Source of the DNA: Phoronis australis
Taxonomy: Eukaryota; Animalia; Phoronida
Direction: 5' to 3'
DNA length: 64,000 nt
Assembly (NCBI GenBank): GCA_002633005.1
Contig: NMRA01000037.1
Span: 186,001-250,000 of the forward strand
Part shown: piece after piece, positions 421-24,700 of the stretch
Numbering within the stretch: position 1 is the first letter of the stretch
Layout of the letters: the number at the start of each line of letters is the position of its first letter
Translations under genes and position numbers: made by a program
The notes under the pieces: generated by a model
Database searches by the model: none
What the model saw: only the letters and a program-made list of their open reading frames with translations
Told to the model about the DNA's origin: nothing

Positions 421-1138
421 CAGGCTTTACAAGTTGACTTGTCTCGGTGAATCATTTTACTTGATGCGGGACGAGCATACTAAGGTACTACCAGTTCTTT
501 GCAAGCCTAAAAATCGCTTCTCTAAGTAAGCAACAGGATGAGACAAATTTTGTTGTGGCAAGACATCTAAATCATAAGTTATCTTTTTGACCGGCGGGGA
601 ATGGAGATGTGAAAGGGGTCACGGCNACTTAGTTCTTATTATAGTCTATGTAGTACCACTGCGTACCAAATTTCGTATTTCATAAAGACTATAATCCAAA
701 AGAGGAACAACATGCAATCAAAATCACTGAATATTTGTCTCAGAAAATTTACACAAAATGAGAGAAATAATACAAAAATTGGAATGTTGAAATACGCTTA
801 CAAGTTTAGCAAGGTAAAAACGTGCCTTACAGAGGTGTTATCATAACCGAGCGGCATCAGTATGGTATTGAAAGTAGAAATTGTTGAACTGATTACGTTA
901 TGCCCCTGCTGGGTGTGCAAACCTTTCTTGATAAGTTACTTGACGTCATTTTTATGCGACGAATCACGTGTCAGAAAAGACTGGAACCGGCTGGTCCTTA
1001 CTGTACTGTAGTTTAGATGTCTATTTGATTTGGCCTGTTGAACGGTGCGTTTCATTGTTGACGCCTGATGATGTTTGATTTGTTATCCGCTCGATCACGT
1101 GACCACGAGACCTCTCAAGAGAATACCCGCTCGTTTAC

Positions 1139-4100
1139 CTTTGCTGTTTTCATCAACATGGGTTTCTTGGTTGAAGTGTCCAGAGGCCTTTTCATCCTTA
1201 GGTGTCCCAGTCCCAGATTTTCCGCTTCCAAGCGCTCTAATTCCGTCTCTAACATTAGATGAAAATTTAAGTTTCTTTTATAAACAGCCGATAACTACAA
1301 GACACATATCAGTTTAATGAATGCCTAATAACAAGAAAGTTGTTAAATCCATGCAGGCAGGTATAATTTTTTAACTGATATTAGTTATACAACACGCAAA
1401 TTAATGACGCGTTTTTAACTCTGTGATTCAGTCCTAATGTCGTCTACCCCGGCCAGCACTACTTTCCTCTCTTATTCATTGGTGTGAAGTTTGCTGGCAG
1501 TTACATCCCCAAAAGGTGGACAGAACGAGCCCCCGATTTGGCGAAATGGGTAAAAAGATCCATCCCTTAGAGGCAAAAAGTCCGACAAAATGGAACAAAA
1601 GTCCCTAAATAAGCGCAAACGCGAAATTCGCAGTGGTGCTCTCGTTCTTTTTTTTTTAGTCCGACCGACGTCAGAAATTCGAGAGGCCCCCCATGGTGAA
1701 GGCTGGGTACGCGCATGAAAAGGGCTGTATTCCGCAAAGCCCGTTTCTGGCAAGTTAATAAGCGAGATCACGCAAGTCGTAGCGAGATATTCCCATGGAA
1801 TTACAAGCTTTACTCGCAAGTATCACGAGTTACGAAACGAGCTTCAGGACGAAGGCTCTTACGTTGATCCGAGCAGCTCACGTGACACTCCATTTCTTGT
1901 ACTTCCAATGGTAGTTTGAGAACTTCTGGGAAGTGCCCGAATAGTGTCGAGTGGCATGGCATTCCTGATTTGTAGAACTTCATGTTATCTTCTATCCATG
2001 AGGGGATCGTTTTCTTACCCCGTGTGATAACTGTGCAGCGACCTGTTTAATAAAGGCGAGCACGTGAATTTAGAAGCTTCAGCAAAATCATCCACATCGA
2101 CCTTATTACGGATAGCGAAAGACGTTTTTAAATCTACACTAAGAATTTTAAGAAAGCGCGGTCACGTAAGGCAGCACCTAGCGGCCAGAACACGTTGACA
2201 TATATGATAAAGACCAGTTCATTTCCAGTTGATTTTCAAGCAGCCCGACGTTCAGTTCATCAAAAACACAAGCTTGTATATGCAACATATATTCAAAATC
2301 AACCGACAGCTTACCGAACATACGACTGCCTGCGTGACGCTTCCAAAATTGGAGATTAGAGTACCGTACTCACAGTCTATAAACATGTCATTTGGAATGC
2401 GCACGCATCGATTTTCGCTAGAAGGTTAACATGCCAACACGTCCGTCAACAGCATTTGAAAAGCGCTATATATATTTTTGGTATGGGAAAGTAAGAAAGC
2501 ATTAACTTATGTTATTTCACTTTGCAAATTGCGTGGATGAGCGGTGTGGACCCAAAATTTGGAGGTTGGAAAGGCGTGAAGAACAGACTACTTTTAATAC
2601 ATTCTCAGTTCGCTTTGCGGTAACGTCAGTGTCACGTTATTGCCAAACACAAGTTTGGTCATCTTGCCGTAAGTAAGCGTTCTAAAGATGTATGTCCGCA
2701 AGAGAAACTAAACACTTGAATTTCTTATAAAAACCAGGATTTTTGTCAACACGCAAAAAATTCTCAAATTTTTGGCGATGAGAGGAACGAGACCTCTCGC
2801 AATGGGTTCTCGCCTTTGCTAAATGTGCGTATACCTACATATTGCTTTGAGAATGCGTACTAGCTACATGGATAAAAAAGAAAATTCAGTTAACGTTTGC
2901 ATTAAATTGAGAAGATGTACGTAGACCATTGGCATAACAATTCCTTATTGTTGGCGCAGTGGGTCAAGCAACAACATGGATTAAGATTGTAGATCTAGCT
3001 CAATTTCTGAGTGCCATTTTTATTGCTCGTCTGACAACACTCACCAGACCGAACCTACCAGTTGACCATTTCCGGTTATGGGGATAAGCCACGCATCGAT
3101 CAAAGCGACACGAAAATTGGTTACATTTTCTGGCCGAAAAAGCGGATCCCAGTCTAGTAATGAACTTAGAGTCACAGTTTTAGTGTTTGTTTGCGAATGC
3201 AAAGAATTAATGAACTGAATTCGTAACCATGTCCCTGGCATACCCCGAAAAGCGATGTTATCCTTAGCGTTTCCATTCTGTATCCTCATGTTTTGAACAA
3301 AAGATGGATTTGAAAAAGTATGAAGTTGCAAATTAATGTTCATTGCACTCACCTTTTCTCCGTCGTACGCCGGTTTTGTCCCCGCAGACACTGCACCGGG
3401 ACCAGCTGGTCCAGAAATTTATGGCCAGCCAACCTCCAAACTCTACAGAAAAAACAAAAACTGTATACTTTGTAGTTTTTCACCCTGTTTTCTGATTCTA
3501 TCTACGTTGTGAGGGTTACCTAGTAGGGCGTTAGAAAGGCCAAGGTACCGGTACCAAATCTTGTGTTGATGGATTTACCTTGAAAACGGACAGATCTATG
3601 CTTCTGAGTACTAGATTATACGGCATGTCGTTAAAGTTATTTTATACCATAGATGTATGTGAAAATGCGCCTGATTTATGTTTTCGAATTCCTCTCAAGT
3701 AAAAATGTCACCAAAGCTCAAGTGTACGTTTTACGGTGGTTGTAAAAAGACGACTTTGATTTTTTCTTTAGACTTATTTCTGTCGATGGAGTTCTTTTAA
3801 AAGTCTATTTGCAGTCGGCAAGTCTGTCAGTGGAGACGCTAATGGTTTGTCGATACAGTCACTATCTCTATCGATAGAGATAAGCCTGGAGGAATAATTC
3901 ACGTCCTATGGCTACCACCATATAATAAACTGTTCTCAGTCCGTACACAGGCTGTTAATTCTATGACAGGCCGCGGTAGCTGTCCGATCGTACTGTAAGG
4001 CTGTGGTAGAACGGTTCGCAAAACATAGCAGAAACCTGGCGTGCGTTCAGTAGACGCTAGGACCTACGCTAGGACCTAGCAAAAACCTATTCAAAGTCAC

Positions 4101-7100
4101 GTGTTTTTATTTAAAATACACGGCAATATCTCACGTAATCTCGCGAAGTCTTGCTTTTTAGCGAGGTCCTAGCGTTACTAAACGGGAGGCTGCTTTACAG
4201 TGCTATCAAAGGATGATAACTTTGTTACAATTGACTTTTATTTAAAAGCAAACTATGAATTGTTGATCACGATGTATTCGCTTGTTTACTTACTGTTTTC
4301 ATACTTGATCATCTTGTTGGTGAAGGGAACTGAAAAATTGAGAATTTTAAGTAGATCATAGAGTTTTTACAACCCAATTCCAAAACCTGTTTAAAATATG
4401 AAAATATTCATTCAGCAAAGTCCTACGTTGACTTAAGGAGAGGGTTGGTTGCTTAAAAAACCTGAATGGGTATTCTGTTTGAAAGGAGACGGGTTGAGTT
4501 ACGAAGCTGTAAAATACATCGGACATTTTCAGACAAAAGATTTTTACGACTGTGCAAATCTTCCATTTTATCTAAACGGCGACCGGGATGTTTTGGAAAA
4601 CGTTTTTGAAAAAGATCATTTCAATTTCTAATATGCTAATTATGTCACGCAAAAGTTTCCTTCCCATTGATAACGTTTATCGTTATATTAAAACAAGAAT
4701 TCCACTGCTAAAATTAGTAGCATATCGCCCATTAGTAAATAAAATCTAACAAAAGCTGTCGAATGTTTTCTCAATCATACGCAATGACTGTTTCCGTCAG
4801 ACAGTACGCGCGTGCGTACATGTAGACATCCCTCCTTTTCGTATACATAATCGCATTACAATAAAAAGTATTTTGTTTGACACGTCCCGACGATATAAGC
4901 TGTCTCCAGAGCAAAAAAGATCGTAAGATGGCAAAACATAAGCCAAGAACCAACTCCAAACGGAAGCAGACTAAGCTCGAGAGATCGAGAGGCATTGTGC
5001 CAAACTACGCAAACCTACGAGGGTGCCTACCTTTTATTGTCTTTGGGGAGTCCAGTGCGACTGAAACAATATGAAACATAAAACTTTAAAAGCGAGAAGG
5101 ATATAAAATGCATTTAAGTGTCAGAGGCGTAGGATTTCGGATTTTTACTGCGTCTCTACAGGAAAAAGATGCAGACAGCTATTTATTGCGCTGCTAGGTC
5201 CAGCTGTATCAAACGTAGTTCGCTGACGATACACGAAATAACTCTCACGTGCAGTACAGTAATAGTGTTGGACCTGGTCATTTTTAGTCGAAACACGACA
5301 GATTAAAATTGAAGTAATGCTGTCTCAGTAGAATGTCTCGGAAAATTTGTCGGACTCTGACGTATTTCTTTTGTTAAAAACCCCACTGAGCGACCAGACA
5401 TGGGTCTTGCATAGGCCTTCTCTGGCCAACTAAGGACCCATTTCGTAATCCAATATACAATCGCAACCCAATACACTCTCGAGGGAAGCAAATGAGACTG
5501 CACAGGCGTCCTAGTAATACCTTTTCGCTCTCTCACGCATGCCTCGTATTAAAAAATTGTTCACCTGATACCCTATCGGTATATAGGGCTGGCAAGGCGT
5601 ATTTCATCATGCCGCCGCTATTTCGGAAAATCGATCGCTCATAACCTCGAGCGTTGAACTGTCCACGGAGGTGGTCATCATCTGTCTGGTCACCACCCTC
5701 AACGGTGAGCGGCTTGTTGAAGTAAGGAATTGACCAGACCCTTTAGTCTTGCACCCTCCAGTGTGTACTCAATGAGGAATGTCCGTAGAGATGCCACGCA
5801 CTCAATCTATTACCATGGCCACTGATATGCTAATGGGAAGCTACACCCGGATTCAACAGAAAACACGTAATCATTGTACCTCAGAATGGATATTACGGGT
5901 TTTGGTGTGTGATCTTTCCTTGAATTTTTCGTGTAACTCACCTAAATCGTGCGCCACGCGTGGCCTTTGAACAGACTTTGCTAAGATCGAAGTTTCAAAA
6001 TGTATTCCAAACTTTTGAGGGTCAAGACAAATGCATGGAGATTTCACAAAGACATGTGAGCTCTCACACAAAGTCGCAAAAACAAGCTTGATGAAGTGTA
6101 TCTTATTGCAGAATAGTGTGCGACCATTGGTTTAGAGATCCACTTAAATTACCCTAGATATGACTACGGCATTTGATCCCAGAAGCCACCGTAGATGTTC
6201 GCGCATTGCGGCCACTAGTGAACTGACTGTGAGAACGTCCACAACAGCGATAGACAGTCATTTTTTGCCGCCCTGCTTGGGTAAGTTGGAACAGAACCTA
6301 CCGTCAACGTGGTACAAAAATCGCCATCTTGACTTGAGAATTAGCAGTCGGTGACGTTGCATAAGCTGGTCTGGATCATTATTCAGCTTGTGCGAGATGT
6401 ATTCTTCCATTTTGTAATCTTCGCAAAAATACGTCCCTTCGTCACCTAAAATGAGTCAAATTATGTAGCGTTTACGACTGATTGCAAAAAATGAAGCACC
6501 TGAATTAAAGCCCACAAAAAGCGGCGATTACCTCTACCCGGGCCAAAGATAACGGTGCCACCCACGAGGTAATCCCTCAGCTGCTTGCTACGAATGTGGC
6601 CACATTGCCCCTGGTTGCCACCAATGTCTCACTGTCCCCGGTTGGCACTAATCTCACGACCAATTCGTCCCACCTCGTTAGCCACTAGTTTTGCAGCACC
6701 CTGGTTATATGTACCATCCTTGCTCCCGTAGGTGCTGCATTGGATTTTGGCTCCGTAAATTTAACCAAAAGTTCAATTTTTAATGTTGAAAATTGTCGCC
6801 GGTCATTTGTAACGGAACTGGTGCCTAAACACAAGGGATAGATCGCATTAAACTTCAAAACTTGACTGGATAAGCTTGATTGTTAAACGAAATCAAGTGC
6901 ATTTTTCAATATTGACGTTACTTAATGTGTTGCCATTGTTGATAGCTAGTATGCATCCGGGAAGAAAATTACTTGAAAGTGAAAGTGCACCTCCAAAATT
7001 TGATATCTATTTGTTGTGAGACGAGGGACGATCTCAGGTAACTTCAATCTAGACAGAACCCTTCGCGAAATTGCTTACCTGGTTGAAAGTCTTTGATGAC

Positions 7101-9030
7101 AAGTGTGTGCGCTCCCGTGAGAAAGATGCGATTGTATTGTTCCTCGTCGTGCAGATCTAGGTCCACCTCCCTTGCATCCTGCTCAACATCCCATCTTATC
7201 TGCGCATCAAGTCGGTCCAACTTATACCAGCGCATGCGCAAATAGTCTGAAAATTCCCCGCTGAAAAAGCACGAGTTTCGTATAATTATTCGGATTCCGA
7301 ACACAACTGTTAGTTCTGACATGCCAATGAAGCTATTAATACTCGTGTCCAGGGATCCAGAACTTGTACAGTAAATACTGTAACTGTGCTCCAAAATTGT
7401 TCAGCAAATACTGCAGATCCTACCAAAAGCAGAAATGCGTCTTTCGGTGGACTTTGGATACTTAGGCCATAGTGAAGTTCAAGGATTTACGGAGATTGAA
7501 CAAGGAAAAGTACTTGCGGGATATAAATGCCTGTGCGGGTAGACCTCACAATCAGGTAGCGTCAAACGCTACAATTGTACCTACTTTGTCGTCACGGTGA
7601 CAAACGATATATACGCCTGCACGAAAAACTAGCCAAGTTGAATTTCATATAAACTTAGGTTTTAGCTCCTGAAGCTGTTTGGTCCAACCCTCATTCTAAA
7701 AGATGCCGTGGTATGGCTGNGAACTCGTTAGCTCTCACAGTCAGACTATACACTGTATGAAAAGAAATTGGCGCGAAATGCTTGCCTCCTAAAACGTCAC
7801 GTCCGGAGTAGCGGACGAGTAATTAATAAAATTACGAAAAGCTGTAATTAAGTGGAAAATGTGACTAGGATAACCAACCAACCTTATTTTAGCTGAAAAT
7901 GACATGGAAAAGGGTTGCCTTCGCCTTTAATGTGTTGCCATTGTTGATAGCTAGTATGCAACCGGGAAGAAAATTACTTGAAAGTGAAAGTGCACCTCCA
8001 AAATTTGATATCTAGGCCTATTTGTTGTGAGACGAGGGACGATCTCAGGTAACTTCAATCTAGACAGAACCGTTCGCGAAATTGCTTACCTGGTTGAAAG
8101 TCTTTAATGACAAGTGTGTGCGCTCCCGTGAGAAAGATGCGATTGTATTGTTCCTCGTCGTGCAGATCTAGGTCCACCTCCCTCGCATCCTGCTCAACAT
8201 CCCATCTTATCTGCGCATCAAGTCGGTCCAACTTATACCAGCGCATGCGCAAATAGTCTGAAAATTCCCCGCTGAAAAAGCACGAGTTTCGTATAATTAT
8301 TCGGATTCCGAACACAACTGTTAGTTCTAACATGCCAATGAAGCTATTAATACTCGTGTCCAGGGATCCAGAACTTGTACAGTAAATACTGTAACTGTGC
8401 TCCAAAATTGTTCAGCAAATACTGCAGATCCTACCAAAAGCAGAAATGCGTCTTTCGGTGGACTTTGGATACTTAGGCCATAGTGAAGTTCAAGGATTTA
8501 CGGAGATTGAACAAGGAAAAGTACTTGCGGGATATAAATGCCTGTGCGGGTAGACCTCACAATCAGGTAGCGTCAAACGCTACAATTGTACCTACTTTGT
8601 CGTCACGGTGACAAACGATATATACGCCTGCACGAAAAACTAGCCAAGTTGAATTTCATATAAACTTAGGTTTTAGCTCCTGAAGCTGTTTGGTCCAACC
8701 CTCATTCTAAAAGATGCCGTGGTATGGCTGGCTGTCAGCATCAAGAAAAGTTATTCACTATACAAGTGCAAAAAGTCAACCAATGACGCTGCAGCTCTGC
8801 TCTTCCCATTTCTTGCCATTCCTTCGCATTTTCGGACCGCCCTTCTCATCGCCAGTTCCAGATTCACATTGGATGATAAAGACCGAGACTAGAGAAGGTA
8901 AATATGAGGTACCAATAATGGCACGACAGTGCAACGTTCTCTCCTCTTCTGGCCACAGTCGCTATCCCGGCTGGTGACTTTTCTTTCACCTTGTCCAGGC
9001 GCTCTCTGCACTCTTGGGTATCCGTAGACT
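1139..9030 (-). CDS. Ig-like V-type domain protein, FAM187A-like (multi-exon; 5' and 3' ends not located)
   Basis: Phase-consistent GT-AG exons: 9030-8913, 8271-8090 (duplicate copy 7260-7079), 6445-6302, 5060-5031, 4329-4305, 3610-3579, 3442-3353, 2042-1863, 1236-1139. Translation gives RGENVALSCHYC..MRWYK..RIFLTGAHTLVIKDFQPGDEGTYFC..FLYHVD (Ig domain), then FWTSWSRCSVCGDKTGVRRRKGRC..GMPCHS..ECHVSC. This is the FAM187 Ig + WxxWxxCxxC cysteine-rich layout. Confidence 0.8.
4039..4189. mobile_element. Short Harbinger-like MITE
   Basis: Imperfect TIRs GCGTGCGTTCAGTAGACGCTAGGACCT and AGGTCCTAGCGTTACTAAACGGGAGG, flanked by CTG at 4036-4038 and 4190-4192. Confidence 0.55.
6922..8730. repeat. Near-identical ~800-bp direct duplication (6922-7719 / 7927-8730), probably an uncollapsed haplotype
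   Basis: Copy 1 ends exactly at the single N (7720). The copies differ by a few SNPs and a 6-bp indel. The two differences inside the exon are synonymous. Confidence 0.85.
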
Positions 9031-11940
9031 CTAAATTATGGAAGGAGAATGAAAATCAAATATTAGAGCCCGAGGTATCCCCTCACTGAGGAACACGCAG
9101 CACCGCACTTAAAGACGGAGTGCGCAAAGGCGACCTTTATTAGACCGGCAGCCCAGAGCTCTCATCATAAATGAACGAGGTACCAAAACCAGACCACAGG
9201 AGCGCTCACAGTTTACCCCCAGTTTGTACAGAAACGGATGCCTGTTTGTGTCTACATTCTAAGTGTGTACCATGGGGACATTGCAATTAGGACAAAAATC
9301 GAGCTAAATTACAAATTCGAGGTACCGGCCAAAACTGATTTAAAATCAACATTGTCCCGTGAAAGAAAAAGTACATCCTGGAAACGGCCCGCCAGAGAAA
9401 CACAAAATTGTCTCCAAAACTGAGTCGTTCAAATATTAGAAGTACCATAGTCGTAATATATGGCGCTGATCACTAAATGGTCTATGAAAGGCAAACCACA
9501 CTCAGGACCCACCAGAACCCCCAAACATCTCTCCCATGGCATACCGTTGACATTATGAGCTAGATTAGACATTCGAGGTTACAACCTGCACGGAAGGACT
9601 GTTAGATTTTCTGTGAACGGTCAAGAAAAAAACCCATGAAGTTTAATATGTACCTCGCTAGAGGAGCAATAAAACCGCTTCTTGTGTCAAAAACAACTTT
9701 TGGTTTAGGCTCGCACTGGACCTATTGCATCTAATCACGTAAACATGGATTTAATTAAGTATCACTTCATTTCCGCTCATAAGTGAACAATGTGAGTTTA
9801 TGACATACGCCATTGTTGACTTAGGTAGTGAAGGATTATGTATTACATAAACTTTTGTATGAAGTGTGGAGTGAATTTTAAAATCATTTCCCTGGTCTTT
9901 GTGGACCTCCAGTCACCGTCAAAGAGAAATGTGCGAAGGTCTTGGAGATTTTTATCAAGTAAGTCGAGTTGAAATGATTCAGTTCACTCCACAATTGATA
10001 TGCCTGGATGGATCGAGACTTGCATTTTGTATGAAGTGTTGAGACAGGCAGCGACCTCTATGTTTAAATTTCTTCTGTCGTAATTGGGCATTCACTTTTG
10101 TAAATTTGTTTTATTTGCGTTAATGCATCAGGAATCTGTTTCGTGAAATGTAACTAAAAGACTTGAGACAGAAATTTGGTCTTGCAGTCCCCGCTGCACA
10201 TTCGCTGAATGAACGCTTTTGCCAGGTCGAATTATGAGCGCATCCTAGAAACGATTTATAAAAATTTTCTCTGTAACTAGCTGTTATGTCTGTATTCTTA
10301 GAGGCTTTGCATTTTTGTTCAAGTGGTTCAGAAATATTGTGTGTCTCAAGTTTTATGTCATTTTTCACAAAATTGAACCCCAGTGTTCATAGTCTTGGTG
10401 CAAAGCTGTATACGATAGTCTTCATACAGCTAGCTGGCTGGCTACAGTGTTCATTGATTTCCTAAACAACCAACTTTCACTTGGCAGTGAGCATATTACT
10501 TACCAAACTCTTCAAACGGCACAAAAGGATCTAGTCCGCTGACACTAAGCAGTAAAACGTTACTGAGCCAAAGTAGGAAACTGTACATGATCACGATCTA
10601 CAGGTACTTTTCAAATATTGTGAATGGCTCAAAATCGTGTAATGAGCTTCCAAAGAGTTGCTTCGACGTAACGCGCGTGAATTTACAATTTATTTTAGAT
10701 TTACTAAGCACTGACGTCATTGTTATCCACGTGCTGTAGGCCTTATCCACACGATTAGATTACGTTTTCATTTTGATTTTTTTCTTGAGCTTACGTTTTC
10801 AAAAAGTTTTTCGTCCAGACTTATTGTGTACTTTGAAACGATCGAAAATATGTCTTGTTCATTGAATTTTCAAAAAAATCCATCTAAGCGTACCACTTTC
10901 GTTTCGCTAGATGGCAGCTATACTTTAGGCAGCTATACTTGCAGCCTCGCTAGTTCTCTGCATGTCGCTAGGTGGCAGAGAACGCACGCAGGGAACCAGC
11001 AAGTACTTGGAGAGTGTTGTGAAACAACCAAGATCCGCCAAATCACGCGCGTGAAAGACACGTATATGCCTATCCCAACAATCATACATAAACCCCCACG
11101 AACAAAATCACCACTGACCACGTGTTTTTTGACTTGTGGTTTCAATGCCATGACGAGACTACTACAACTATGCTGAACTTGTCCCATCAGTACGATAAAA
11201 ACATTACTAGTACGTGGATTTTTGTTTAAAAAAATGTTCTTAACCTATTTTAGTAGACAGTCTGACAATATATTCAAACGCTATCTGGTTCGGTGTTTGT
11301 TTTTCGGGCAGACAGGCTTGCACATAGTATTGATGTTTGCAAAACATGATGCGTATGGCCAGATTGTCCACCGCCAACATTTCTGTATGGGTCGTAATCA
11401 CCTCACTATCAACACTGATTGTGCGCTATGCCTCACATGATGGTTCATTGCCAATTTTTATAACATCGTTTTAGGCTAATTTTATCGCATTTCATCGGAA
11501 GAAATCATCCTAGCACAGCTGTTCACGAGAAATTGAAAAAGTCAAAAAATCACTAGCTTCAGTGTAAGGTATTGCAGTTTATTTCAGGCAGTGTTTTATT
11601 GCTGTGAAGTCATCTTCGCAATACAATAATTACACAAGGGGGGCTCAGATCAGGGCTTGTGAAAAGGAGAGTCAATGGCGCCATTGGTTCCTCAACAAAT
11701 CCATTGAAGAAGTACAAGTGAATGTGCGCGACGCAAGGCGAGTTTTAATGAGATGACACAAAGCAGAATTTCGGCGCAAATTTATCGGTAGCCATCAATG
11801 GTCTTTTTGAAACAGGTGCATTTGAAGTCACAACAAGATATTTTTCTGTAGTTGCACTGGCACCATTTTTGCAAAGATTCCATATCAAATGCGAGGCTGG
11901 ATTTGTAATAATATCTTTATGTGGGCGTAATGAAATTTAG

Positions 11941-12414
11941 GCCAATCACTTTCTGCCGACGTCATTTGATTGTATCACACATAACCAACAAACAAAAACA
12001 AAATAAAACCCGTCCTGGTTCCATAGAATATTTCTCCGGTCAAAATCATTTCTTAAGCAAGAAGAAAAAAGATCGCACAGATTTGACCCCTACGTAAGTA
12101 TGATTTACGGCAATTAATGGTTATTTCGCAAAAACACTTGACTTTGGCTACCATCTCGCTCAAACGAATTGCAATTTTGTTTAAGACAGTCTTGCGTAAT
12201 TCCTACAGACATTTGTATGATCCAAACCTAATCAAAGTATGAATAAGTGGGGACCAAGGAGGTGGCAATTGACCAAACAACTTGTCTTCGAGTCATTCCT
12301 CAAACAAAAAACAAAGAAAAACAATACGAGTCGCTCATCTATGTCTTATACTTCCAACTGTCGAATGGGGATCAGTTCTCATTCTGTTGATTAATGTCAT
12401 TCTATTCTTTTCAG
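11941..12414 (+). promoter_or_regulatory. Putative promoter and 5'UTR intron of paralog A
   Basis: CCAAT box (gccaatca at 11941), CRE-like gacgtca (~11958), donor CTAC|gtaagt at 12093, and polypyrimidine-ttttcag acceptor ending at 12414, 39 nt before the ATG. Confidence 0.5.
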
Positions 12415-12453
12415 ACATCATAAATTTGACAAGAAAGTCAAAATTGGCTGAGA

Positions 12454-15400
12454 ATGAGCGGGTATCAAAAGATTCTCAGCGTTTTACGAAAAACGTGGCT
12501 ATCAGGAAGAGAGGCTGTACCACTTCTGTGTGTAGCAGACGACACAAAATTGAGTCTCGACAAATGCCGTTACTATCTTCGAATGATGCATCGTGCCGGC
12601 TACATCCGTTTTGACAACAAAAACAAAATATGTATATTGCAAGAAACGTCACGTTTCCCGAGAACTATTAAAGACTTACAGTCTTCAGCTACAGCACGCA
12701 ATATACCCACCCTCCAATGTACAAACCTATGGGATAGACACAGCGACTATGATCTTTTGGAATATGAGTCACGTGGTCATCCAAGACCGGACAGAACCAG
12801 CTCAAGGAAACAAAAAATGGCAAAACGCAAACAAAAGCAGAAAACAAACGAATCCAGAAAAGCTGACGTCGATATTTACTTAGATAATCAAGTCATTAAA
12901 AGTACAGAGGTCCTTTCTAGCTTAGACTGCGAGGTAGTTTTTCAAAGTGCATTGAAAAAACTATTAGCTCGTGTCATACCGATTCAACAGCTAAACAACA
13001 AGGAGACCAACGAGTTACTGATCAAACTTAACGAATCTTATGATGTTCTGAGAAGTCAAATGATACATCCGAACTCGGAGCACATTCCTTTTCTTCAGAG
13101 AATCGCCCTGTTACTGAAGCACTTCTTTGAGATGGGAATTCACAAATGTCCAAGTAACGATGCAGTAGTGGCATCACTGCTGTCTCACATGGTTGTCACA
13201 AGCAGCTACAAACTGCTCTCTGCTTTCACGCCAACAAGCATCCGTGGCGCAGAATACGACTTCACGAGTGAGATCCAAATGGTAAGAACAAACGCACGCA
13301 CGTGACCTGAAGCTACTCCTGAAAACATTTCTGTCCCGACGGGGTCTCGAATCCGGGACTTCACGCAATCCTTGAAAATACGCTCTCGAGTCACCGCGTT
13401 GATAAAGTACGAGGACATTACGACCAACATATAGCGTGCGAGAGGCTAATAGTTCTTATTCGTACCATATCAACGCGCTGAATCATGAAACACGCACAGA
13501 TACACGAATTTAATATCCGCTACAGAGACCAACAGTAGAATCCATCAATCTGTTACAAGCTTGCAGCAATCGTTAAAACACTGCCTTTATGTTCGAATTG
13601 TTATTAAGCAGGACCCTTTCTCTCCGATTCCGGAGTGCAGTGTTAGCACTACGGCAGGATGTTTCGAAAAAAAGCAATAAGTCTTACATCCGGTGTTCAT
13701 ACTGGCTGAAGCACTTGCGTTTTCGCTAGCATTTAGCTAGCAGCAAAAAACGTCAGTAATGCAAACGGTCACAAAGACCCAAAACTATTGGCGTTTTCTG
13801 TAACATTTTTGTAGTCAGACCGCTTACTTCAAACGCACTCGTGCGCAGAAGCAAGAAGCCTTAATTTTGTTTTATAGTCACATCAATCAATTTATGGCAG
13901 AGAGAGAACGCGCATAAAAAGCGACTCGGATGGTGAGGAAACAATTGCTGTTGAAAGCCCTTCGCGGACACGAATTTATTTTGGGTTACGCCCCACCTGC
14001 AACAAATCACCAAGACAACGGTGAAGACTTTGGATTTCACGTTCACGTGAAAAAACGTCACGATTTTCGGGCACTCGAACTCATTGCCTACAGCGTCATT
14101 TTCTTCTGAACGAGCTGTCTTTTTTCTTTGTTCCTTTCTGCATTACCGCTAGGTCTTTTGTGCTTCCATGTGTTTTGAAAGATGACTAATTGTTTCTGTA
14201 ACGGACATTTTCAATTCGTGTGCTGAAGTCTTAACGAAATTTTCGCCAGAACTTGAAGTAGATACTTTGTCCTTTGTAGTAATTGCAGTTTCATGGTGAT
14301 GCGCATCCGCTTAAAAATTGATCCATATCATCTCCAACTAGACGAGAACCGGTCACGAGAATATTAAGACGGGTCAAAGATACACACAATCAAAGGAGTG
14401 TCCTTTTTCGAATCACCCATGATCAAATAAAAGCTCTTATCTTACCCTGTTTTAAACATAGAAGAGCCCCATTATGTTCGCATTGTTGTTATATACGGAC
14501 CCTCGCTCTCGGCTTTCAGCAAATGTGTTCCTACGAGTCGTGTTCTAGTAAAAAGTAAGGTATTATTTAACTTCGTATTTTAATTACTGACTCACCTTAT
14601 ATTACAGATTATATCCATGTTTGTCAAATCTTGCTACCCTGATCAATGTACACCGGGAAGGGGCCCTTCAAATACAAGAGCTCTATCAAGCAGAGGTGTA
14701 ATTGCTGCACATGCTCACTCCAGTCACCATGACTACCCGACGGCCAAGAGTCACTATACAGACGACACGGAGAACGAAATGCATTTTGGGATTCCTTCAG
14801 ACACGGTAGGCTCTCAAATGGAAATTTCTGTCGAAGATGTTGACCCTCTGTGCAGTAGTCAGCAACATGACATGGAAGTATACACAGGCGTGACCACGGG
14901 AAGGTCGGGATTGGATTTTGACGGGAATGTTAAGGAGCAAACAGAGTTTTGGTCTAAGAGAGATTATGCCGATGAAGATTCAGAAAGGAAACGTAGATCA
15001 CAGATATCGATCGAAGACAGTTCAGCTAGAGAACAGATGGAGTACTGGACGAATCAAAGTACGGAAGAGGAGTATGCTCGCCGAGAACCGATACACATCG
15101 ATGACAGCAGCGCAAACGAGCACATGAGATTTTGGAAGGAGAGAGAATCTTTATCAAATGAAGAACGAGGACATCATTCGGATGACATAGCCAGAAAATC
15201 GCCCAACACAGTTGAAAGCGAAAAATTGGTGTCAGGACTTATTCAAGATCTGGATGTAGAGAGGCAGAATCCGGATTCCTCGATTGCAAGCCTAAATTTA
15301 AAACTTACTGAACAGGCATCAGATACGTTTATTAAAAACGAAGGAGCAACTCTATCAAGCTCAAGTATCAAATTGCAAAACAACGACTCGTCTTTATCTG

Positions 15401-15558
15401 TCAGTCAAGACGCGAGTGCACGGAAGTCCATTAATACGCTAAATAGTGAACGATTGGTCTCACAAGTGGCTACAGATCTTCAACAAGAAAAAATGAACCC
15501 GAACTCTTCCATTGCTACCATAAATTTGACAATATTAGACGAGGACTCTCCCCATTAA
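12454..15558 (+). CDS. Paralog A: winged-helix + degenerate HEPN-like domain + repeat-rich acidic tail (~590 aa)
   Basis: Exon 12454-13281 ends at ATG|gtaaga. The phase-0 acceptor tacag|ATT at 14608 joins it to the ORF ending at 15558; AATAAA at 15611. Clear similarity to paralog B (MSGYQKILSVLR / MREYQRVLSSLR, PRTIKDL, LNxSY, DFTxE). The exon join is inferred. Confidence 0.7.
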
Positions 15559-17337
15559 TTCATAATTGTGGAGAGTTAAAACTCTTTCGAAAAGGTCGGA
15601 CGAAAATTCAAATAAAAATGCAAAATTTAACACATTAAATGGCATGTTTGCCTGGTTCCTGTCATTCTGATGAGCAAAATATGACTACTCCTTCAATGAT
15701 TTGTAAACCAATTCGAACATACATGTTTTCAAGATATAATTTATAAATTGAACTGAATTTAATGATCCGCATACTGGTGGGCGATGCTTCGCAGTTCCTA
15801 TTTCACACTCTTCGGTTGTCTGCGTAAACGAATTAGGTTTTCCGTCATAAAGAGGTAACCGTCACGCCATCTAGTCATCAGGCCGGTAATCCACCAGTTC
15901 CCATTTTTTATAAATCTCTGATTATTTCATCATATAAAGATAAACTTGACGTCACACAAGACGAAATTCCTCCTCTATATTCATAGGTAAGTCTGTCTGG
16001 ACCCATTTTAATTGATAGATAAAACGGCTGGACGGATGCACAAAACATTTCCGGAAAATTCCAGAAAGCCATTGATTCCGCAAGAGCGTAATGCACCATG
16101 CGTGATGCATTTACTCATTCAGATAACCGATGCGTTTTCATGGTTTCGAATGCGCTTTCGAACAAAAACCATTTGGCATGTTCTTTAAAATAAAACACAA
16201 CAGTAGAAACCCATGGGCCCACAACCCAGCCTTTCTTGAACATAGTGGGTCCAAAACATTTACAAGGAGCAGTGTGTATGTGTTACACGTGAATAACGCT
16301 GTGAGAACGCAGGTTACCGTGACTATATGTTGTTTTATATTTCGGGGAGAGCACAAACTTACCCCTTAACAAGCGGAGATAGGCAACTGCATGTTGGCAA
16401 GCGACTTGTTGAACCACAACTGTAAGGCAACACTTGGAAGTTTCAATTGAGAAGCCTATCGCTGACGTCATGAAAACGGAATCCACCCCGTTATGCATAT
16501 TCAGTCGCTACTCAGTCCCAGTTTTCAAATAAACTCCGTGCGTATTACGCTGTTACTGTTTATGCATCACAAACAAATGAAAATATCTCTTTTATTTTGC
16601 TGCTAAAATATTTCTCATTACGCGTTGGTCACTAATGGAAACAGGTCTTAAAATAAAAAGTGGTACAAATGTTACATATCACGCAGAATCACGTACAGGA
16701 AGTAGTAAAGTGTGAATCCTGAACTCTCAAACAATTGAAAACATTCTAATGCAGGAGCAGCATTCGATCGTAGTCAAACTATTCGTACCAAAAAACAATC
16801 TGAAGTCTAAATTGATGGAATGGTCAATAAAGCCATTTTTGGATGTTCTATAGACATTCTGTTAGCACTTTTTGATTAACGACAAAAGATTAATTCATCC
16901 GTAATGCTCATCTGTAATAGTTCACAACATCCGGGCAAAAGGCTGATCGGACGTCTGACACGCTGTATGAAAAAATAACTTGGGAACGCTCGTCAGATGT
17001 CTCGTTTGCCTTCTTTTGTTCACCACCAAACCAGGCGTCAGATCTCTCATCTCAACGTACGAAAAGCTACATTCCAAGCCCGTACTTCTGGTTAGGAGAC
17101 TTTTTTCGAACGCGCATTAATATTATGCTAATTACTCGTAATGCGCCAGACAGGAATTGCCATTGTGAAGGTTCGTTTAAGCAGCTCATCTACGCTATGG
17201 AAAATCGTCCCATCTGTTTTCTCATAAAATTCCAGATGTCAACATGGCTTAATTCATTTGTTTCAGCTCAGTTCACAAAATAGTCCCTGGTAATCGCACA
17301 GCTCCAGTATTGTGGTAAAGAGAAATCACGTACCAGA

Positions 17338-20300
17338 ATGCGCGAGTACCAGAGAGTACTCAGTTCACTGAGGGGAGTTTGGATAAATGGGGGTACCACC
17401 ATCTCTTTCTCACAACTATGCGGGAGGGCAAATCTCTCGGAACAGCGATGTCGTCATTTCGTCGAACTGTTGCGGAAAGCACGGTGTATTGAGTACGACA
17501 AACTCAACCAGTTATCCATTTTGTTACCAACTTGTTACATACCCAGAACAATAAAGGTAAGTTTGCAGACTAGATATATGCGTTCTATAATATTATTTGA
17601 GAACAACGAGCAACATGAAGGATCGCCACAACGTGCGAGATTTAAACTCACATTGAATACTTCTCTTCTTGTAACTTACTCATAAAATACATCGCATTGT
17701 TTTACTTTTGAAATAAGAATTTTCACCCAATAGTCAGTCCAATTACCTGGCTATAGCTGTACTGAACTCATTCTGTATTTTCAATCATACCAGGATTTAA
17801 AAAGTCACGCAACAAAAATGGCGAGAAGAGGGCGTGAATCACGTGACTCAGGGGATGGTGAGAGTGAAGACGAATTACAGGATGATCTGGACTCGAAAAA
17901 CACAAATGACGCAAAAGATGCGTTATCCGTAACTAAGCGCATAGATTCTAGCATCGACCTTTCACTGGATACCAACAGTAAATCCTATCAAGACGTCATC
18001 AAAGCAAACATTCGATTCTTTGACTGTATGACGCTATTATACAGTGCATGCCGGAAGCTGCTTCTAAGAGTGTTCCCAAGAAACGAAGTGATCGACATGG
18101 ACTTGGTCGTGCTGTTATATACATTGAACGCTTCCTATAATGACTTGCGGTTCCACTTGCTTAGACAAACCAATGCCATGAAAGACCAACTATCGAAAAC
18201 AGTCAACATCCTTATTGAATCCCGGCACAAGCTGGCTCACAATACAGACTGTCATATGATGACTCCCCATGACATCATTTCCACTCACACCATAATATCC
18301 TGTGCCTTTCATGTACTATCATCATTTGAGCCGTCCTGTACACAAAACAGCGACTGTGATTTCACGGTGGAATACCAAAGGGTAAGAATATTTCACAAAC
18401 TGCACATGCAGTTGTGCCTACTTCAATGCGCTAAGTACGTCAAGGGGGTCAGTTTTCAACGTTGAGTGACTTAGATCACTTTTAAACGGGTGTCCAAATT
18501 TAATGTTACACCGGGTCATTCCAAAGTTTAAGACCGGATGAGCATGGTAATATTTTTAATATTTTAAACCACAAAGCTCTTCGATTAGAATTCAAGATTG
18601 ACATCTAAACAGCGGCGACATGTATCTTTAACTAAAACCACGGAATTTCTGTAAAAGAGGGAATCTCGTGTTTGTGTCACACAAGTGCATTAATTTGTAA
18701 CTTTATTTATAAGTAGTAACTCTATCCACCAGATGCGCGACTTGATGATGCAGTCCATCGTACACATCACTTCACTGATAATTGTCAACCAGAAGGCCAT
18801 TACCAGCAGACTCAGTAGACTTGATGTTATTGCCCTTCACATTGACGAGGCTGTGTGCAAAATGCAACAGGAGGAATGGCAGAATCAAAACAACCGAAGA
18901 TGCAGCACGTGCGGATCAAACACGTGGAACAGTTTTGACGCAGAGTCGGGCAACATCGTCCCATGGTCGAACCCACAAATGAAAGAGTCCAAGAGAGCGC
19001 ACCAAACGCGAGAATGGTCAGACCAAAATGAACCTCGCTTCCGATTCACTCAAAACCAGCAAGAATCGACTCTGAACCATGACTATGACAACAAAGAGGC
19101 TAAGATATCAGAATCTTGGATGAATCAGTTCCAACGATACGCAAGTTCGCTAAGGTCCTGGGTGAGCAGAAACCAAAGAGAAGAAAATCACCAAACAGGA
19201 CCAAACCACCTAATATACGACGGTCAGTGGCAAAATGTGCCTCAGTTAGAAAACTCTTCCAGTCAAGCAATGGAGAGCAAATTACAGAGAGCCGACAGTG
19301 ACACCCAACGAGTGTCACAAGCGAGAATGTTGGTAAGCAAAATCATGGACCATGCAAAACGGACAGTCTCTTGGTTTGATGGGAGAAAACGTACCGATCA
19401 GACAAACAGTGAAGACAGCCAACAGGAAAGTGATATGTCGGATGAAGAAGACACTGAAAATGAATGGGACACCGAAAAACACGAACTAGAGTACGAGGAC
19501 AACGAAAACGCAAAGGAAACGGGAATGTCTGTTGAACGCAAAAGCCAGACAGACGCTAAAATAACACAGTGTGACCAAAAAAGTCTGGATAAGCTTTTTG
19601 GGAATCAACGTTTATCAACAGCGGACCATATAGAAGTTGCCAGCAGAATCTGCCGTCAAGTACTGTCCCGCTCGAGAGCAATTGTGGAAGAAGACATGCA
19701 GAATCAATTCTACAACAACCCGGAAGAAGGCCGTCAACAAGAAGAAAACCCCTGTAAACGATTGTCAAGGTCAGGCTCTCAAGGGTGGTATGAACAGTGC
19801 AAAAAACGAGATGCTGGCAAGCGTACTTCGTCACCTGGCGCAAAAAATGTGGGAATTGAAACTTCTTTGGAAAAGTTCTTTGGAAGAAGTGGCTCGATTG
19901 CAGACGTTGGTACAAGAATGTCTAACGCAGGCGTATATTCGTCCTTTTTGGGAACGTATCAAGGAGTCGATATAGGTACACGGATGTCAATGACAGGGAC
20001 ATACGATGTAGGTGTGCGAACGTCATTTACCGGTACAGACGTTGGAACACACAAGAGTGTTACAGGAGCCGAGATTGGAACTCGAATGTCTGGACCATTT
20101 CCGGACGACATGGGATCTTTGTATGAAAAGGAATACTCAGCTATAAATAGAAATGATCCCAGCGGTTACCAAGCGACTGTCTCGACCAGCCACGCACGGA
20201 AGTCGTTTCTAGAAAGAGAACCCGGCACTCACCAGTCTTTCACAGGCGTAAACATGGAGAAACTAGGTCCTTTTGATGTACACATGTCCTCTGAGGAAAT

Positions 20301-20916
20301 TGGAAGATTGCGGGACACTACGAGAAGAAAAACAGTTTCAGGTATCCGAGAAGTATGGGATAATAAAAAACATGTGCCTACTCGAACACCACCTGTTGGC
20401 ATGGCGACCACAGGCACTAGAATGTCAGAGCCCTTCACAAGCGAACTAGGCAAACCTACCGACACCAGGGGAATGGTGACGACAATTCGAGACACGACGT
20501 CGCCCCTAGTGTTCCCTGGTACACCTGGAAAAAGGCCGATGGAACGACAAAAGGAGCTGCTGGTGTATCCTGATGAGAAGCTGACAGAGGAAAATCTGGA
20601 CAAGTTATCTTACTACTTGCAGGAATTACTCTTTGTCAAAAGTGTTCATCTCTCAAAGAAACCAAAAGAGAAGTCAAAGAAGAAAAATAAAATGACCCAG
20701 CACTTGGTAGAAATCAATATTGAGTTGCAAGAAAAGAACCCATTGTTCTACAAACTTCTAATTAAATCAAATGTTGACGCGCTAGCTCGCTACATCGGCT
20801 GCCAGCTTCCCCCAAGCTTTATGCCAAGTGTGTTAATGACAGGAGAAGAGACAGGTTTGGTGCGCTATACAATGGAGGACGAAAAAATGAAGGGAAAGAT
20901 GACTTGCATGGGTTGA
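17338..20916 (+). CDS. Paralog B: winged-helix + Swt1-like HEPN (RHKLAH) + long disordered repeat tail (~996 aa)
   Basis: Exons 17338-17556, 17794-18381 and 18733-20916, joined by phase-0 GT-AG introns (AAG|gtaagt..cag|GAT; AGG|gtaaga..cag|ATG). AATAAA at 20984. Rx4H motif at 18223-18240. Confidence 0.8.
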
Positions 20917-21373
20917 AGGTGAAGGGTCAAAAGGTCATCATCAGTCAGACGAAGACATCATCAAAGTCACTTCATTCTGATTAAATAAAATCAATTTCAA
21001 TACTTGCTTAATAATGGAACAAAATATGATGGTGTAAAATTACATCCAGCTGATATCTCAACATACATACAGCACTGGGGTCAGTAACAACGCCACATTA
21101 GGAAATTTTTTTATTGAATTACATGGGATTTCCAGACTTGGCTCAACAAAGCACCTGTAATATCACAGGTATACTATATACAAATAAATATGAGTGACAA
21201 ACCAGAAAAAAATAAATTTTCAGATGTATGTTAATTTATTAAAACATCCAAACTGATCCTACACTATAGACAGTTTAAGCGGCTATGAACCCACCTTGGC
21301 CCACAAAAGCCAAATCACCATTGGTTTAAAATAGTGCTTTTGTCAAATAAGTGGTGACTTCAGGGCTTGGAAG

Positions 21374-21457
21374 GTATTTACAGCTTGTTATTGCTGTCAG
21401 TATTTACAGCTTGTTATTGCTGTCAGTATTTATAGCTTATTATTGTTGTCAGTATTT
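21374..21457. repeat. 26-bp minisatellite, ~3 copies, in the TXNDC9-like 3'UTR region
   Basis: GTATTTACAGCTTGTTATTGCTGTCA tandem units. Confidence 0.85.
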
Positions 21458-21780
21458 CCAAGCCAAGAAGCAACTTCCCATCTGAGTTAGGAACAAGTTT
21501 TACAGTTGTCTAAATCAGACATTTTCTTCTACTCAATGCAGGGTTATAGCCACTTCAAACGAAAACACACCATTGACCTGTAACACGAATTTGCATGTCA
21601 CATGAAAAAACATCCAAAATCATGAAAAAAAAACATCAGAACAACAACATACTAAAAGTACATAATAAATTTTTACTGTTCGAGCATATATGAGTCGCTG
21701 GACGACATTAACGCATGTACTTGCAACTCGCATGAGTGTAAATGGTCACTTTTGTAAACCTGTGTTGACCTGGCCACACA

Positions 21781-24700
21781 CTAATAATCATCATCATCCT
21801 CGTCATCACTATCTTCCTTTTTAAGTGTTCCAAATATTGTTTTCTTGTCTTTTTTCACTTCCACCTCATCGTCAGACTCAATATCATCACCAGGAATCAC
21901 ACCTAGATTAAAATTATAACAGACTCCGTTATATGCATTTCAAGAAAGATCAATATTCTAGCTCTGACACATTATTCATTGAAAAAATAAAGTTCTGTGA
22001 CTCAACTGTAGTCGCTTTTAAAGACCAAAGGAAACATTTACGTAGTGTATTGTTATGTCAAAATTAAGAGGAAAATGCTCACCTGAAAGTGATAATCTCT
22101 TCTCCAAAACTGATGTTGGGAAGTTGTCAGAGTTTCCGAGTGTGTCAAAACCAGTAATTCTGTAGTAAAAATACATTAGGTAGTTAACACAACATGGACA
22201 GGCAGATCTGTCGCAATGTTGCGAGCAATTCCTGAGGCATTTTTTGTCACTCATACATCCTTAAATCCACATATAATTCCTAAGAAAGGAACCTCTCTTA
22301 TTCTCAACTGCATAGTTTGAACAAAGAAACAACACCACATAAAGACTTCAAGGATGCAAAGATAAGTAGAGAGTGTTCAGCAATTTCTACCCAGGCACAC
22401 AGTCTCTTAATTTGTTTAGAACGCCAAAAAGTGTTCTAAGCTGAAAGATACTTCAACTTCATACGAAGTAGCTGGGATATTTAAGGGGTGCCTTTCAGAA
22501 ACTGAAATGAGCAACCTTAAAGACGTTTTTTAGAATTGAATATACAGATGTATCAATCACAGATATTCGTATAACCGATCATGGGTATTTAGGATGGGAA
22601 ATTTTGAAACTTAGCATGCATATGTGAACCCGAAAATGGGCATTTACCCTGACAAAAAAGTGTAGGATAGTACTCGCCTGTCTTTCACATCTTCCTTCAG
22701 AATGCACAGGAGAAGTGGCAGGACTCGGACATTTAGCCGCTTTACTAAAAAAGGAGCGGAGTCCACGTTAATTTTGACAAACTTCGTTCCAAAATACTTC
22801 TCCGAAAGTTTCTGCAAGAGAACCAAATGGGAATAATGTAACGTTGCTATAGTGATGCTTCACTTCAAGCTTTCTACACTTGTAAGCCCATCATACAGTC
22901 TTAGAAATAGCTGCTTGAATCCACATGAAACTTTCAGATACCATGCTTCATACACTGTTCTCAAAAATTGTTTCTAAAATGTTTCACTTTTACACGAGGG
23001 GCTATCAAAAATAGAATTTTTGTAATTTCCAGAAAGAAATCCAAAAATGCATAAAAAACAAGACATTTTAGAAAATTGTATCAGTGTTTTTGAGATCTAA
23101 CTTGGTACATTTATATCAAATGAAATAAAATTTATCACGTTACTGATACTATCATTTTGCTATCGACATTACTTTATTTTTTACAAAATTTTACTAAGAA
23201 TATGGTCACATGACCCAATTTATAATAGATTTGCTAAAATGTCAAAAAGCAAATTCTACAGGCTTCATACTTTCAGAAAATACATTCTTTTACCGAATTA
23301 AAGTATATACTTTGGAGATATTTGGCTGGTCAATAGGATTATACAAAATCCTAAGTCAGTTTTTGAACAATTACTTAAATACCAACCCCAGCGGAGCCTC
23401 ATTTACACAACACTGAAAAGGCAAATCATGCAAACACGTCTCCATAAGAGGGGTGTTTTCAAATTATTCAAATTGGTAGTATCAAATGTGTAATAAAACG
23501 TATTTGATATTTGGTTCAAAATATCCTGTACTATATGTCTTGCCAATAAAAACAGCATGTTCACAATGCTCAAACGTTCCACTGGGTAAGACAATTATCG
23601 AACGTCTAGAAAATATATTGCAAAAAAATACTACAGTTGACTCTAGTAAGTGTTGATCATTCCCACAAGTCTTCATGGATTTCCACAGGACTTACTTCTA
23701 AGTGCGTGTCCATTATTAAACACCGTTTGAAGTCAGAATGGTAAAAATGCACCACACATTTTTCCACACTTGTTGTGATGGCTAAGAGTTCTTTTTCTGT
23801 TTTCACATCACTGAAACAAATTCATATGTATATTAAACTTCACAAAATGCTTGATTTAAAAACTGCAATAGCATGCATATTCAATAAGCAATTGAGTATT
23901 GCAGTTATTTAACTGCAGCAATAAATAAACTTTTAAGTTATTAAGAAATTCTCAAAATACAGTCATAACGTAGTTACGTGACCAACATACAAAGGATATC
24001 AAAAATTTAATACTAAAAACAACAAAATCTACACAAAGATTGTTATCTGCAAGTGAGAAATGTTGAGACCAAACAAAATTAGAAACAGGTAAAAACACTT
24101 TAAAATCTGCAAACAATATAAATCAAAAAAACACAACTTTTCAAATCTTAATGGGTGCAACTCTTCATCAGCACAACTTGTCTTGAAACCTGATAAAGAA
24201 CCGAACCCATTACGGTTGAAAAGCTAGGGTTTTTTAACAATAGCTTTACCGTGCAGTAAAGAATTTTTACCTGTTTCTACATTGCTATCTTCAAGACAGT
24301 CTAAAACACTTTCATCTGAAAATGCCATTAGTCACATTATTAAATATAATGCTGCTTAGAGCATGAAAAGGCACAATTATCAGAAAAAAATGGACAAAAA
24401 CTTGATATAGTTCAGCCAAATCAGTCCATGTGGTCTCAAATATAAGGTGAAGTTCTAAACAACTCTCACTTGACCCATTTATGCTCTGATCAGACCTCTA
24501 ATTCCCATGCTCAGATTCCTAATAACACATTGACTATGGCAGGAGACTAAATGTGAGGAAGGGCACAACACTGCCAGCGCAACTACTGAACCCAAAGACC
24601 AGATCCTGTAACCACCACATTCAGAGGTCAGATACTGTGCTTGGAACTTTGCAGCTGATTGGACAGCTAATTTATGACTGAGCCTGGCTATTACATTGTT

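Follow-up and report, generated by a model that had tools for sequence, protein, structure and literature searches.

What role might be played by two neighbouring genes, here called A and B, that lie on the plus strand of a contig of the phoronid Phoronis australis? The window analysed is a stretch of 64,000 nucleotides (contig NMRA01000037.1, positions 186,001-250,000 of the forward strand; assembly GCA_002633005.1), and all positions given below are counted within it. It comes from an intron-containing animal genome and also carries a DIM1 gene, a LINE (long interspersed nuclear element)-type reverse transcriptase and a thioredoxin-fold gene. The initial annotation had read A and B as paralogous fusions of a winged helix-turn-helix with an HEPN ribonuclease (RNase), one of them dead. 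The explanation put forward here, tentatively when taken as a whole, is that B is a likely HEPN RNase and that A likely pairs with B and changes the amount or the site of cutting, in a restricted tissue, possibly testis. The features on which the argument depends are the following.

12454-13281 and 14608-15558, plus strand: coding sequence of gene A, 592 amino acids (aa)
12454..12672, plus strand: N-terminal (winged) helix-turn-helix of A, aa 1-73 (Pfam HTH_24, E 0.019; A+B profile)
12880..13281, plus strand: HEPN-like helical domain of A with a degenerate motif, 27% identical to the B domain
13126..13143, plus strand: degenerate motif of A, F225-H230, placed by alignment
17338-17556, 17794-18381 and 18733-20916, plus strand: coding sequence of gene B, 996 aa
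17338..17556, plus strand: N-terminal (winged) helix-turn-helix of B, aa 1-73 (helix-turn-helix profile, E 1.6e-4)
17980..18381, plus strand: likely HEPN domain of B, layout nearest to Swt1-like HEPN (profiles, alignment, guided model)
18223..18240, plus strand: R-H-K-L-A-H motif of B, aa 217-222, closing a predicted helix

Two old, intact and co-expressed paralogues

Residues 1-284 of A align with residues 1-277 of B at 26% identity (74 of 289 columns; blastp E 3e-26). Both the N-terminal domain (z=26) and the middle domain (z=17) contribute to the similarity, neither score being reached by any of 500 shuffles, which bears out the original description of adjacent, same-strand paralogues with two domains in common. 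The tails are no more alike than chance allows (z=0.4; 66 of 200 shuffles as high), so that a relationship between them can be ruled out. All three coding introns are GT-AG and in phase 0, neither frame contains an internal stop, and the coding intron of A occupies the same aligned position as the second coding intron of B. Identity at third codon positions is only 28%, and 19 of 25 fourfold sites have diverged, which amounts to saturation and indicates that the duplication is old. A and B are thus intact, ancient tandem paralogues. A scan of the 64-kb window detected no third copy. The RNA reads and contigs contain nine coding variants, eight of them in the tails (six residue-changing); the folded domains carry a single, synonymous one.

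Expression was assessed on positions 11800-23200 with about one fifth of three stranded RNA runs (X1, X2 and X3) that carry the same species label, and one contig set. Junction reads across the first intron of A (12093>12415) numbered 533, 425 and 0 in X1, X2 and X3, respectively, and those across its coding intron 207, 158 and 0; the corresponding figures for B were 5, 10 and 0 for the first, untranslated intron and 79, 84 and 0 and 108, 85 and 0 for the two coding introns. Every coding intron of the two genes is therefore spanned by RNA reads, and each gene has an untranslated first exon. Depth in coding bins of X1 and X2 ranged roughly from 180 to 380 for A and from 95 to 200 for B, and was 0 for both in X3; the opposite-strand neighbour of B was spliced in all three runs (29, 15 and 4, and 15, 10 and 6 junction reads). 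A and B are co-expressed: both genes are active in X1 and X2 and silent in X3. Since A is well expressed and spliced in X1 and X2, it is no silent pseudogene, a possibility that would have undone the initial reading of the pair.

The N-terminal domain gave individually weak best matches in three libraries: HTH_24 (E 0.019 and 0.15), Sso10a (E 0.11) and the RAD21 C-terminus (E 0.37), all of them winged-helix proteins. When A and B were combined in one profile and compared with 27 bacterial HTH_24 members, the match rose to a probability of 95.5% (E 1.4e-8) and took in the three-helix core of the fold; its score of 42 compares with 20.3 for the best of 60 shuffles, and cross-controls stayed below 0.4%. 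The N-terminal exon of B also ranked first among 1,277 window segments searched with the helix-turn-helix profile (E 1.6e-4). These results strongly suggest that the N-terminal domain of both proteins is a helix-turn-helix, as first annotated; the C-terminal beta-hairpin wing is putative, being read from the hydrophobic pattern. Neither a Z-alpha nor a LOTUS subtype was matched in Pfam, and the Asn/Tyr/Trp signature of Z-alpha is missing from A and B.

A candidate HEPN domain in the middle of B

The HEPN RNase site is described as Rx4-6H with a polar second residue, where the His is indispensable and the Arg frequently so (PMC3710099); a small fifth residue is usual, and all HEPN nucleases require dimers (10.1101/760058). 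The motif of B obeys this rule at each position, whereas A retains only the last His (H230), its Arg being replaced by F225, the next His by E226 and the Ala by I229; the Arg-to-Phe change and the retained His had been correctly read from the outset. A conserved Asp (Asp176, at 18100) lies upstream in B, within a D-xxx-LL pattern.

Among 24,736 Pfam families, the top match of B was HEPN_RiboL-PSP (PF18735; E 0.0034, 17.7 bits). Reference sets were drawn from bacterial genomes: 42 PF18731 (Swt1-like) loci picked for diversity, and 20 stop-free PF18735 matches at or above cut-off. Against profiles built from these sets B scored 7.2 and 14.1 bits, respectively, values attained by none of 1000 shuffles and none of 626 natural decoy windows. 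For A the scores were -0.7 and 3.1 bits, with 176 and 37 of 1000 shuffles as high, so that A alone is not significant by this measure; 67 of the 626 decoys reached its Swt1-like score and none its RiboL-PSP score. Six-frame translation of the window gave 1,277 segments, among which the RiboL-PSP profile found only the B exon at E<1 (E 0.005). Profile-profile alignment of A+B with the Swt1-like set gave 116 colinear columns, a result matched by none of 60 column shuffles. An unforced MAFFT alignment of 38 of the 42 Swt1-like references with A and B (40 rows) placed Asp176 and the R-x4-H of B on family columns, and the motif His was the sole invariant column, present in 40 of 40 rows, A included. 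No DZIP3-like HEPN reference sequence was found in 201 genomes (0/201).

AlphaFold2, supplied with this HEPN alignment, folded the B domain with a best predicted local distance difference test score (pLDDT) of 86.3 and a predicted template-modelling score of 0.78. All five such models fell in the pLDDT range 82-86, with the motif ending a long helix. The best matches of the guided model among 48,161 chains were HEPN proteins and Roquin (Z 8.2-9.7). The ten best superposed over 96-107 residues with a root-mean-square deviation (rmsd) of 2.4-3.4 Å; three of the ten are titled HEPN, and a further five (1wwp, 5yep, 1jog, 1ylm and Roquin, 4txa) are also HEPN proteins, in part according to PMC3710099 and PMC5303829.

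Several observations weigh against this assignment and, with it, against the explanation built on it. The top Pfam match lies under the family cut-off (17.7 versus 28.4 bits), and Pfam's HEPN_Swt1 (PF18731) and HEPN_DZIP3 (PF18738) match neither A nor B; the original call of a Swt1/DZIP3-like HEPN in B is moderately supported for the fold, with no Pfam match to either of these two families. It is largely the motif helix that gives B its profile scores. No match to B came from a narrow profile of 86 close Swt1-like domains, the broader Swt1 profile ranks B third in the window scan (E 0.8), behind two unrelated frames, and the hhalign probability of the A+B versus Swt1-like alignment is only 6%. 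The acidic Ex3[KR] pattern that many, though not all, HEPN families have upstream is replaced by Y-x3-R in B and by Q-x3-K in A; the Ava_2192-type rows of the alignment likewise lack this Glu, and the Asp of D-xxx-LL is retained in B. Predicted from its single sequence, the B domain gave a poor model (pLDDT 52.7) that matched only generic helical hairpins. The four-helix bundle of the HEPN fold, in which helix 3 ends in the motif, is present in the HEPN-guided model and was not seen in the low-confidence, unguided one. The good model was steered by a foreign HEPN alignment, and thus shows compatibility with the fold rather than giving independent proof of it. Foldseek returned no match to the guided model at E<=0.001, and Z values under about 13 can reflect a common helical arrangement. 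No orthologue of A or B was found in the collections searched.

An alternative consistent with these points is that the helical domain is no HEPN at all, the motif having arisen by chance in a dimerisation bundle, and that A and B act in germ cells as DNA-binding or chromatin proteins particular to their lineage. No HEPN match reaches cut-off, the model made without guidance does not look like an HEPN, the domain with the strongest support is a helix-turn-helix similar to those of the DNA-binding HTH_24, Sso10a and RAD21 C-terminus, and both proteins contain basic stretches resembling nuclear localisation signals. This alternative has to contend with four HEPN landmarks in the correct order and spacing, with scores of B unmatched by any decoy and with five of five guided models above pLDDT 82, and we regard it as improbable. 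Because several weak but concordant tests agree, the middle domain of B can be assigned to the HEPN fold with moderate support, and this assignment is very probably right.

Relation to known HEPN proteins and a possible A-B partnership

Searches for relatives were empty. The first coding exon of A found no homologue among longer proteins or 1.84 billion representatives (E<=0.001), the A+B domain profile none among proteins of 73-235 aa, and the B domain none among proteins of 236-2000 aa. Metagenome and prokaryote contigs yielded no homologue, plasmids two matches attributable to chance, and 251 Chloroflexota-side genomes four matches at E<=0.05, again at chance level. PDB sequence searches produced nothing significant, and PADLOC, NCBIfam and PHROGs no cut-off-level match for A or B. 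Such empty searches carry little weight where sampling of animal genomes is thin. The architecture, already unfamiliar to the first annotator among named animal genes, is not described in the open-licence literature searched, where we found no animal protein of winged helix-turn-helix-HEPN layout and no HEPN pair of active and inactive paralogues. The animal HEPN families listed in PMC3710099 and PMC9646362 fuse the domain to PIN, NACHT, dsRBD, TPR, RING, ankyrin or death domains, and the fusions of a winged helix-turn-helix to HEPN found in PMC3710099 are bacterial. Judged by sequence, the A/B pair would represent a new animal HEPN architecture, outside any named HEPN family.

Resemblances to individual families are partial. 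The Swt1-like HEPN (PF18731; Ava_2192 type, a Daphnia expansion, CXorf38) shares with B the order and spacing of helix 1 and D-xxx-LL, followed by R-x4-H with Ala at position 5 and a further helix; B differs in lying under the Pfam cut-off and in having a shorter insert after helix 1. Swt1-like domains have AAA+, PIN, dsRBD or NACHT partners (PMC3710099), B instead an N-terminal winged helix-turn-helix and a long tail. RiboL-PSP-HEPN (PF18735) is the best-scoring family for the motif helix of B, but it is bacterial and the match is mainly to that helix. The DZIP3/hRUL138-like HEPN (PF18738) of molluscs, cnidarians and others is, like B, an animal Rx4H domain, often found in tandem arrays (PMC9646362); unlike it, A and B have no Pfam match to the family, no NACHT, TPR, RING or death domain, and just two copies in the window. 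Las1 has a motif that also starts with R-H (RHxhTH), but position 5 is Ala in B rather than Thr/Ser, and B has no Las1 Pfam match. The bacterial EC042_2821 and MTES_1575 join a winged helix-turn-helix to HEPN as A and B do (PMC3710099), but are restriction-linked proteins with REase or helicase domains.

Roquin (RC3H1/2) resembles A and B in overall composition, being an animal protein with a winged helix, an HEPN domain and a low-complexity tail (PMC5303829); its N-terminus ranked sixth in the fold search with the guided B model (Z 8.3, rmsd 3.4 Å, 107 residues aligned). Its winged helix is, however, inserted in a split HEPN and accompanied by RING and CCCH domains, whereas that of A and B is separate and N-terminal, and B has a full RNase motif. 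The comparison directs attention to the tails, which contain these features.

14608..15631 (coding to 15558), plus strand: last exon of gene A, acidic low-complexity tail (sequence, RNA 3' ends)
18877..19230, plus strand: polar stretch of gene B (aa 318-435; 118 aa, 7 of them Trp) that may contain short binding motifs
20545..20916, plus strand: C-terminal ~120 aa of gene B (weak matches to FtsX_ECD, E 0.014, and phrog_6598, E 0.0014)

Trp-centred repeats occur in both tails and would be in keeping with short binding motifs. The A tail has three of them (aa ~381-457) as well as a 44-aa duplication (aa 471-514 and 547-590); the polar stretch of B shows a weak, sub-threshold match to Pfam Ago_hook (E 0.0085). 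GW/WG pairs are almost absent from either tail. The tails had been described as unrelated and of low complexity; the first part agrees with the shuffles given above, and the second does not extend to the last ~120 aa of B, which probably form a folded alpha/beta domain, to judge from their sequence. An RNA recognition motif (RRM) at this position was ruled out (probability 0.09 against six bacterial RRMs). Within the B tail, at 19762-19999, a contig from one run (X4) steps back 238 bases, with four differing letters, possibly reflecting a duplicated allele or an assembly chimera.

It seems conceivable, though less than likely, that A and B are non-cutting, Roquin-like adaptors that act in parallel, the winged helix and HEPN binding mRNA and the tails recruiting decay or silencing factors. 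Roquin itself combines a winged-helix ROQ domain and HEPN with a variable tail of low complexity through which CCR4-NOT is recruited (PMC5303829), and its rank in the fold search, the Trp-rich tails with their weak Ago_hook match, the missing upstream Glu in B, and the fact that A remains intact and more highly expressed despite loss of the Arg all fit this possibility. Yet B has kept the complete four-position motif while fourfold sites became saturated (19 of 25 differ), none of the coding exons of A or B has a Pfam match to RING, ROQ or CCCH, and the Ago_hook match remains under cut-off in tails nearly free of GW/WG pairs.

Under the RNase explanation favoured here, the product of B would be a metal-independent HEPN endoribonuclease, which probably cuts RNA as a dimer. 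The winged helix may select the nucleic acid or a docking partner, and the Trp-rich tails may bind RNA-decay or granule proteins. That A joins B in a mixed dimer is a possibility suggested by paralogy, co-expression and HEPN biology, on balance somewhat doubtful; since A mRNA has about twice the depth of B mRNA, mixed dimers would then be the main form of B. The site of a B:A dimer would contain a single Arg together with two His. Studies of Las1 offer a guide: three of its four R/H residues are enough for cutting, with altered cut sites, whereas almost no cutting is left once one side has lost its Arg and its His (10.1101/760058). As A lacks the Arg and keeps the catalytic His, and one-Arg Las1 chimeras cut with shifted specificity, A would more likely be a tuning partner of B than an inhibitor, and the dead paralogue acting as inhibitor in the initial annotation appears too simple. 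A counterargument is that positions 2 and 5 of the motif, both essential in Las1, are altered in A as well, so that A departs further from wild type than do the published single-Arg chimeras. The same study, which asks why HEPN enzymes need two motifs, supplies in Cas13 a precedent for two unlike HEPN domains forming one site (10.1101/760058); the literature searched contained no natural HEPN heterodimer of two genes in which one partner is half-dead. Complex prediction with the helical domains of A and B scored 0.00 in two runs, which, folded without alignments and with the partner fold uncertain, is evidence neither way.

Promoters, neighbouring genes and the expressing tissue

The transcript ends and the sequences next to them bear on where the pair is expressed.

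11958..11964, plus strand: GACGTCA, a site resembling the cAMP response element (CRE), 14-22 nucleotides upstream of the main gene A 5' ends
11978..12093, plus strand: untranslated first exon of gene A, joined 12093>12415, with no upstream ATG
15947..15954, plus strand: TGACGTCA, a complete palindromic CRE, at the gene B 5' end
15950..15986 (5' end approximate), plus strand: short untranslated first exon of gene B, joined to 17267

The main 5' ends of A are at 11978 and 11986; its AATAAA is at 15611 and its 3' ends at 15601 and 15631. Junction reads of B extend at most 26-34 nucleotides into the first exon, and 26 (X1) and 19 (X2) further loose read ends match exon 15950-15986. The separate poly(A) signal and 3' ends of A and the first exon of B's own rule out one fused A-B transcript. 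The 64-kb window has 11 distinct GACGTCA sites, which makes the sequence over-represented (17 matches versus 5.3 expected, palindromes counted twice). Three of the sites (10712, 11958 and 15947) coincide with the 5' ends of three genes with a common on/off pattern, a regularity spotted post hoc. Broad homology between the A and B promoters was ruled out (118 of 300 shuffles as high).

The third of these genes lies head to head with A on the minus strand (~1000-10719), has nine exons and follows the same on/off pattern as A and B, its nine junctions being covered by 4-35 reads each in X1 and X2 and by 0 in X3. A 335-codon stop-to-stop frame shows a signal-peptide-like start and Ig V-like and WxxWxxC stretches, a layout that resembles FAM187, a name that profile and PDB searches did not confirm. 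FAM187 is a sperm protein conserved in bilaterians, with two Ig domains and a membrane helix (10.64898/2026.05.13.724128); the frame here does not display these. One exon of the nine-exon gene is present as a near-identical tandem duplication (6922-7701 and 7927-8712), and both copies are spliced to one upstream exon (7260 and 8271 to 8913), which suggests alternative use.

Three further genes were noted in the window. A thioredoxin-fold gene, presumably phosducin/TXNDC9-like, adjoins B on the minus strand (21353-22860); it is expressed in all three runs, and one of its introns is apparently GC-AG. A DIM1/TXNL4A gene with an uninterrupted coding frame lies on the minus strand at 47382-47810 (Pfam E 3e-69), and a LINE-type reverse transcriptase with zf-RVT and a 747-codon open frame lies on the plus strand at 54537-56780.

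CREM drives spermatid genes in mice (PMC3091680). From the CRE-like sites at three co-patterned genes, testis can be proposed as the expressing tissue, a guess about as apt to be wrong as right. Two circumstances count against the explanation favoured here: the runs have no tissue labels, and both heterozygous sites are common to X1 and X2, which may therefore be one animal or pool rather than independent. Sites of the CRE type also serve stress-induced genes, in keeping with a different, improbable explanation, by a shade less credible than the chance-motif alternative above: that B serves as an RNase against viruses or transposons in an immune or stress-responsive tissue, comparable to the DZIP3-type and CXorf38-type HEPN proteins of invertebrates, with A as a decoy or brake. 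Animal HEPN expansions are tied to defence (PMC3710099, PMC9646362), and the lack of detectable relatives would suit fast evolution; but there are just two copies in 64 kb, NACHT, death, ankyrin and dsRBD domains are unmatched, and the folded domains vary little (one synonymous change).

The two genes are tightly linked and co-expressed from separate promoters, with A in excess; these features and the orphan status of the pair, together with the frequent use of HEPN domains as toxins (PMC3710099), also invite the thought of a selfish poison-antidote element of the male germline, in which B would be an RNase poison that A neutralises in carriers. The duplication is, however, old, the locus sits among ordinary genes with few between-sample differences, and neither a testis HEPN RNase nor an HEPN-based driver is described in the open-licence literature searched. 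One-Arg dimers still cut in Las1, Ire1 and RNase L, so that A may be a poor antidote, and this is the explanation we consider very improbable. Our broader conjecture of a male-germline, two-gene asymmetric HEPN RNase under shared CRE-type promoters, in which an active and a half-dead paralogue form either one composite site with altered specificity or a poison and its antidote, is itself unlikely.

Animal HEPN proteins are known in rRNA processing (Las1), in stress and antiviral responses (Ire1, RNase L), in mRNA control (Roquin) and in unstudied immune expansions, and a tissue-restricted winged helix-turn-helix-HEPN pair matches none of these layouts. A and B are an orphan pair from one genome, which limits generality. 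If the partnership proposed here is correct, the pair would provide in nature what was engineered as the one-Arg Las1 chimera; should the tissue be testis, it would be a candidate RNase for sperm-cell RNA clearance or germline conflict. Such an asymmetric pair would be the HEPN counterpart of the active-plus-pseudo nuclease complexes in germline RNA processing.

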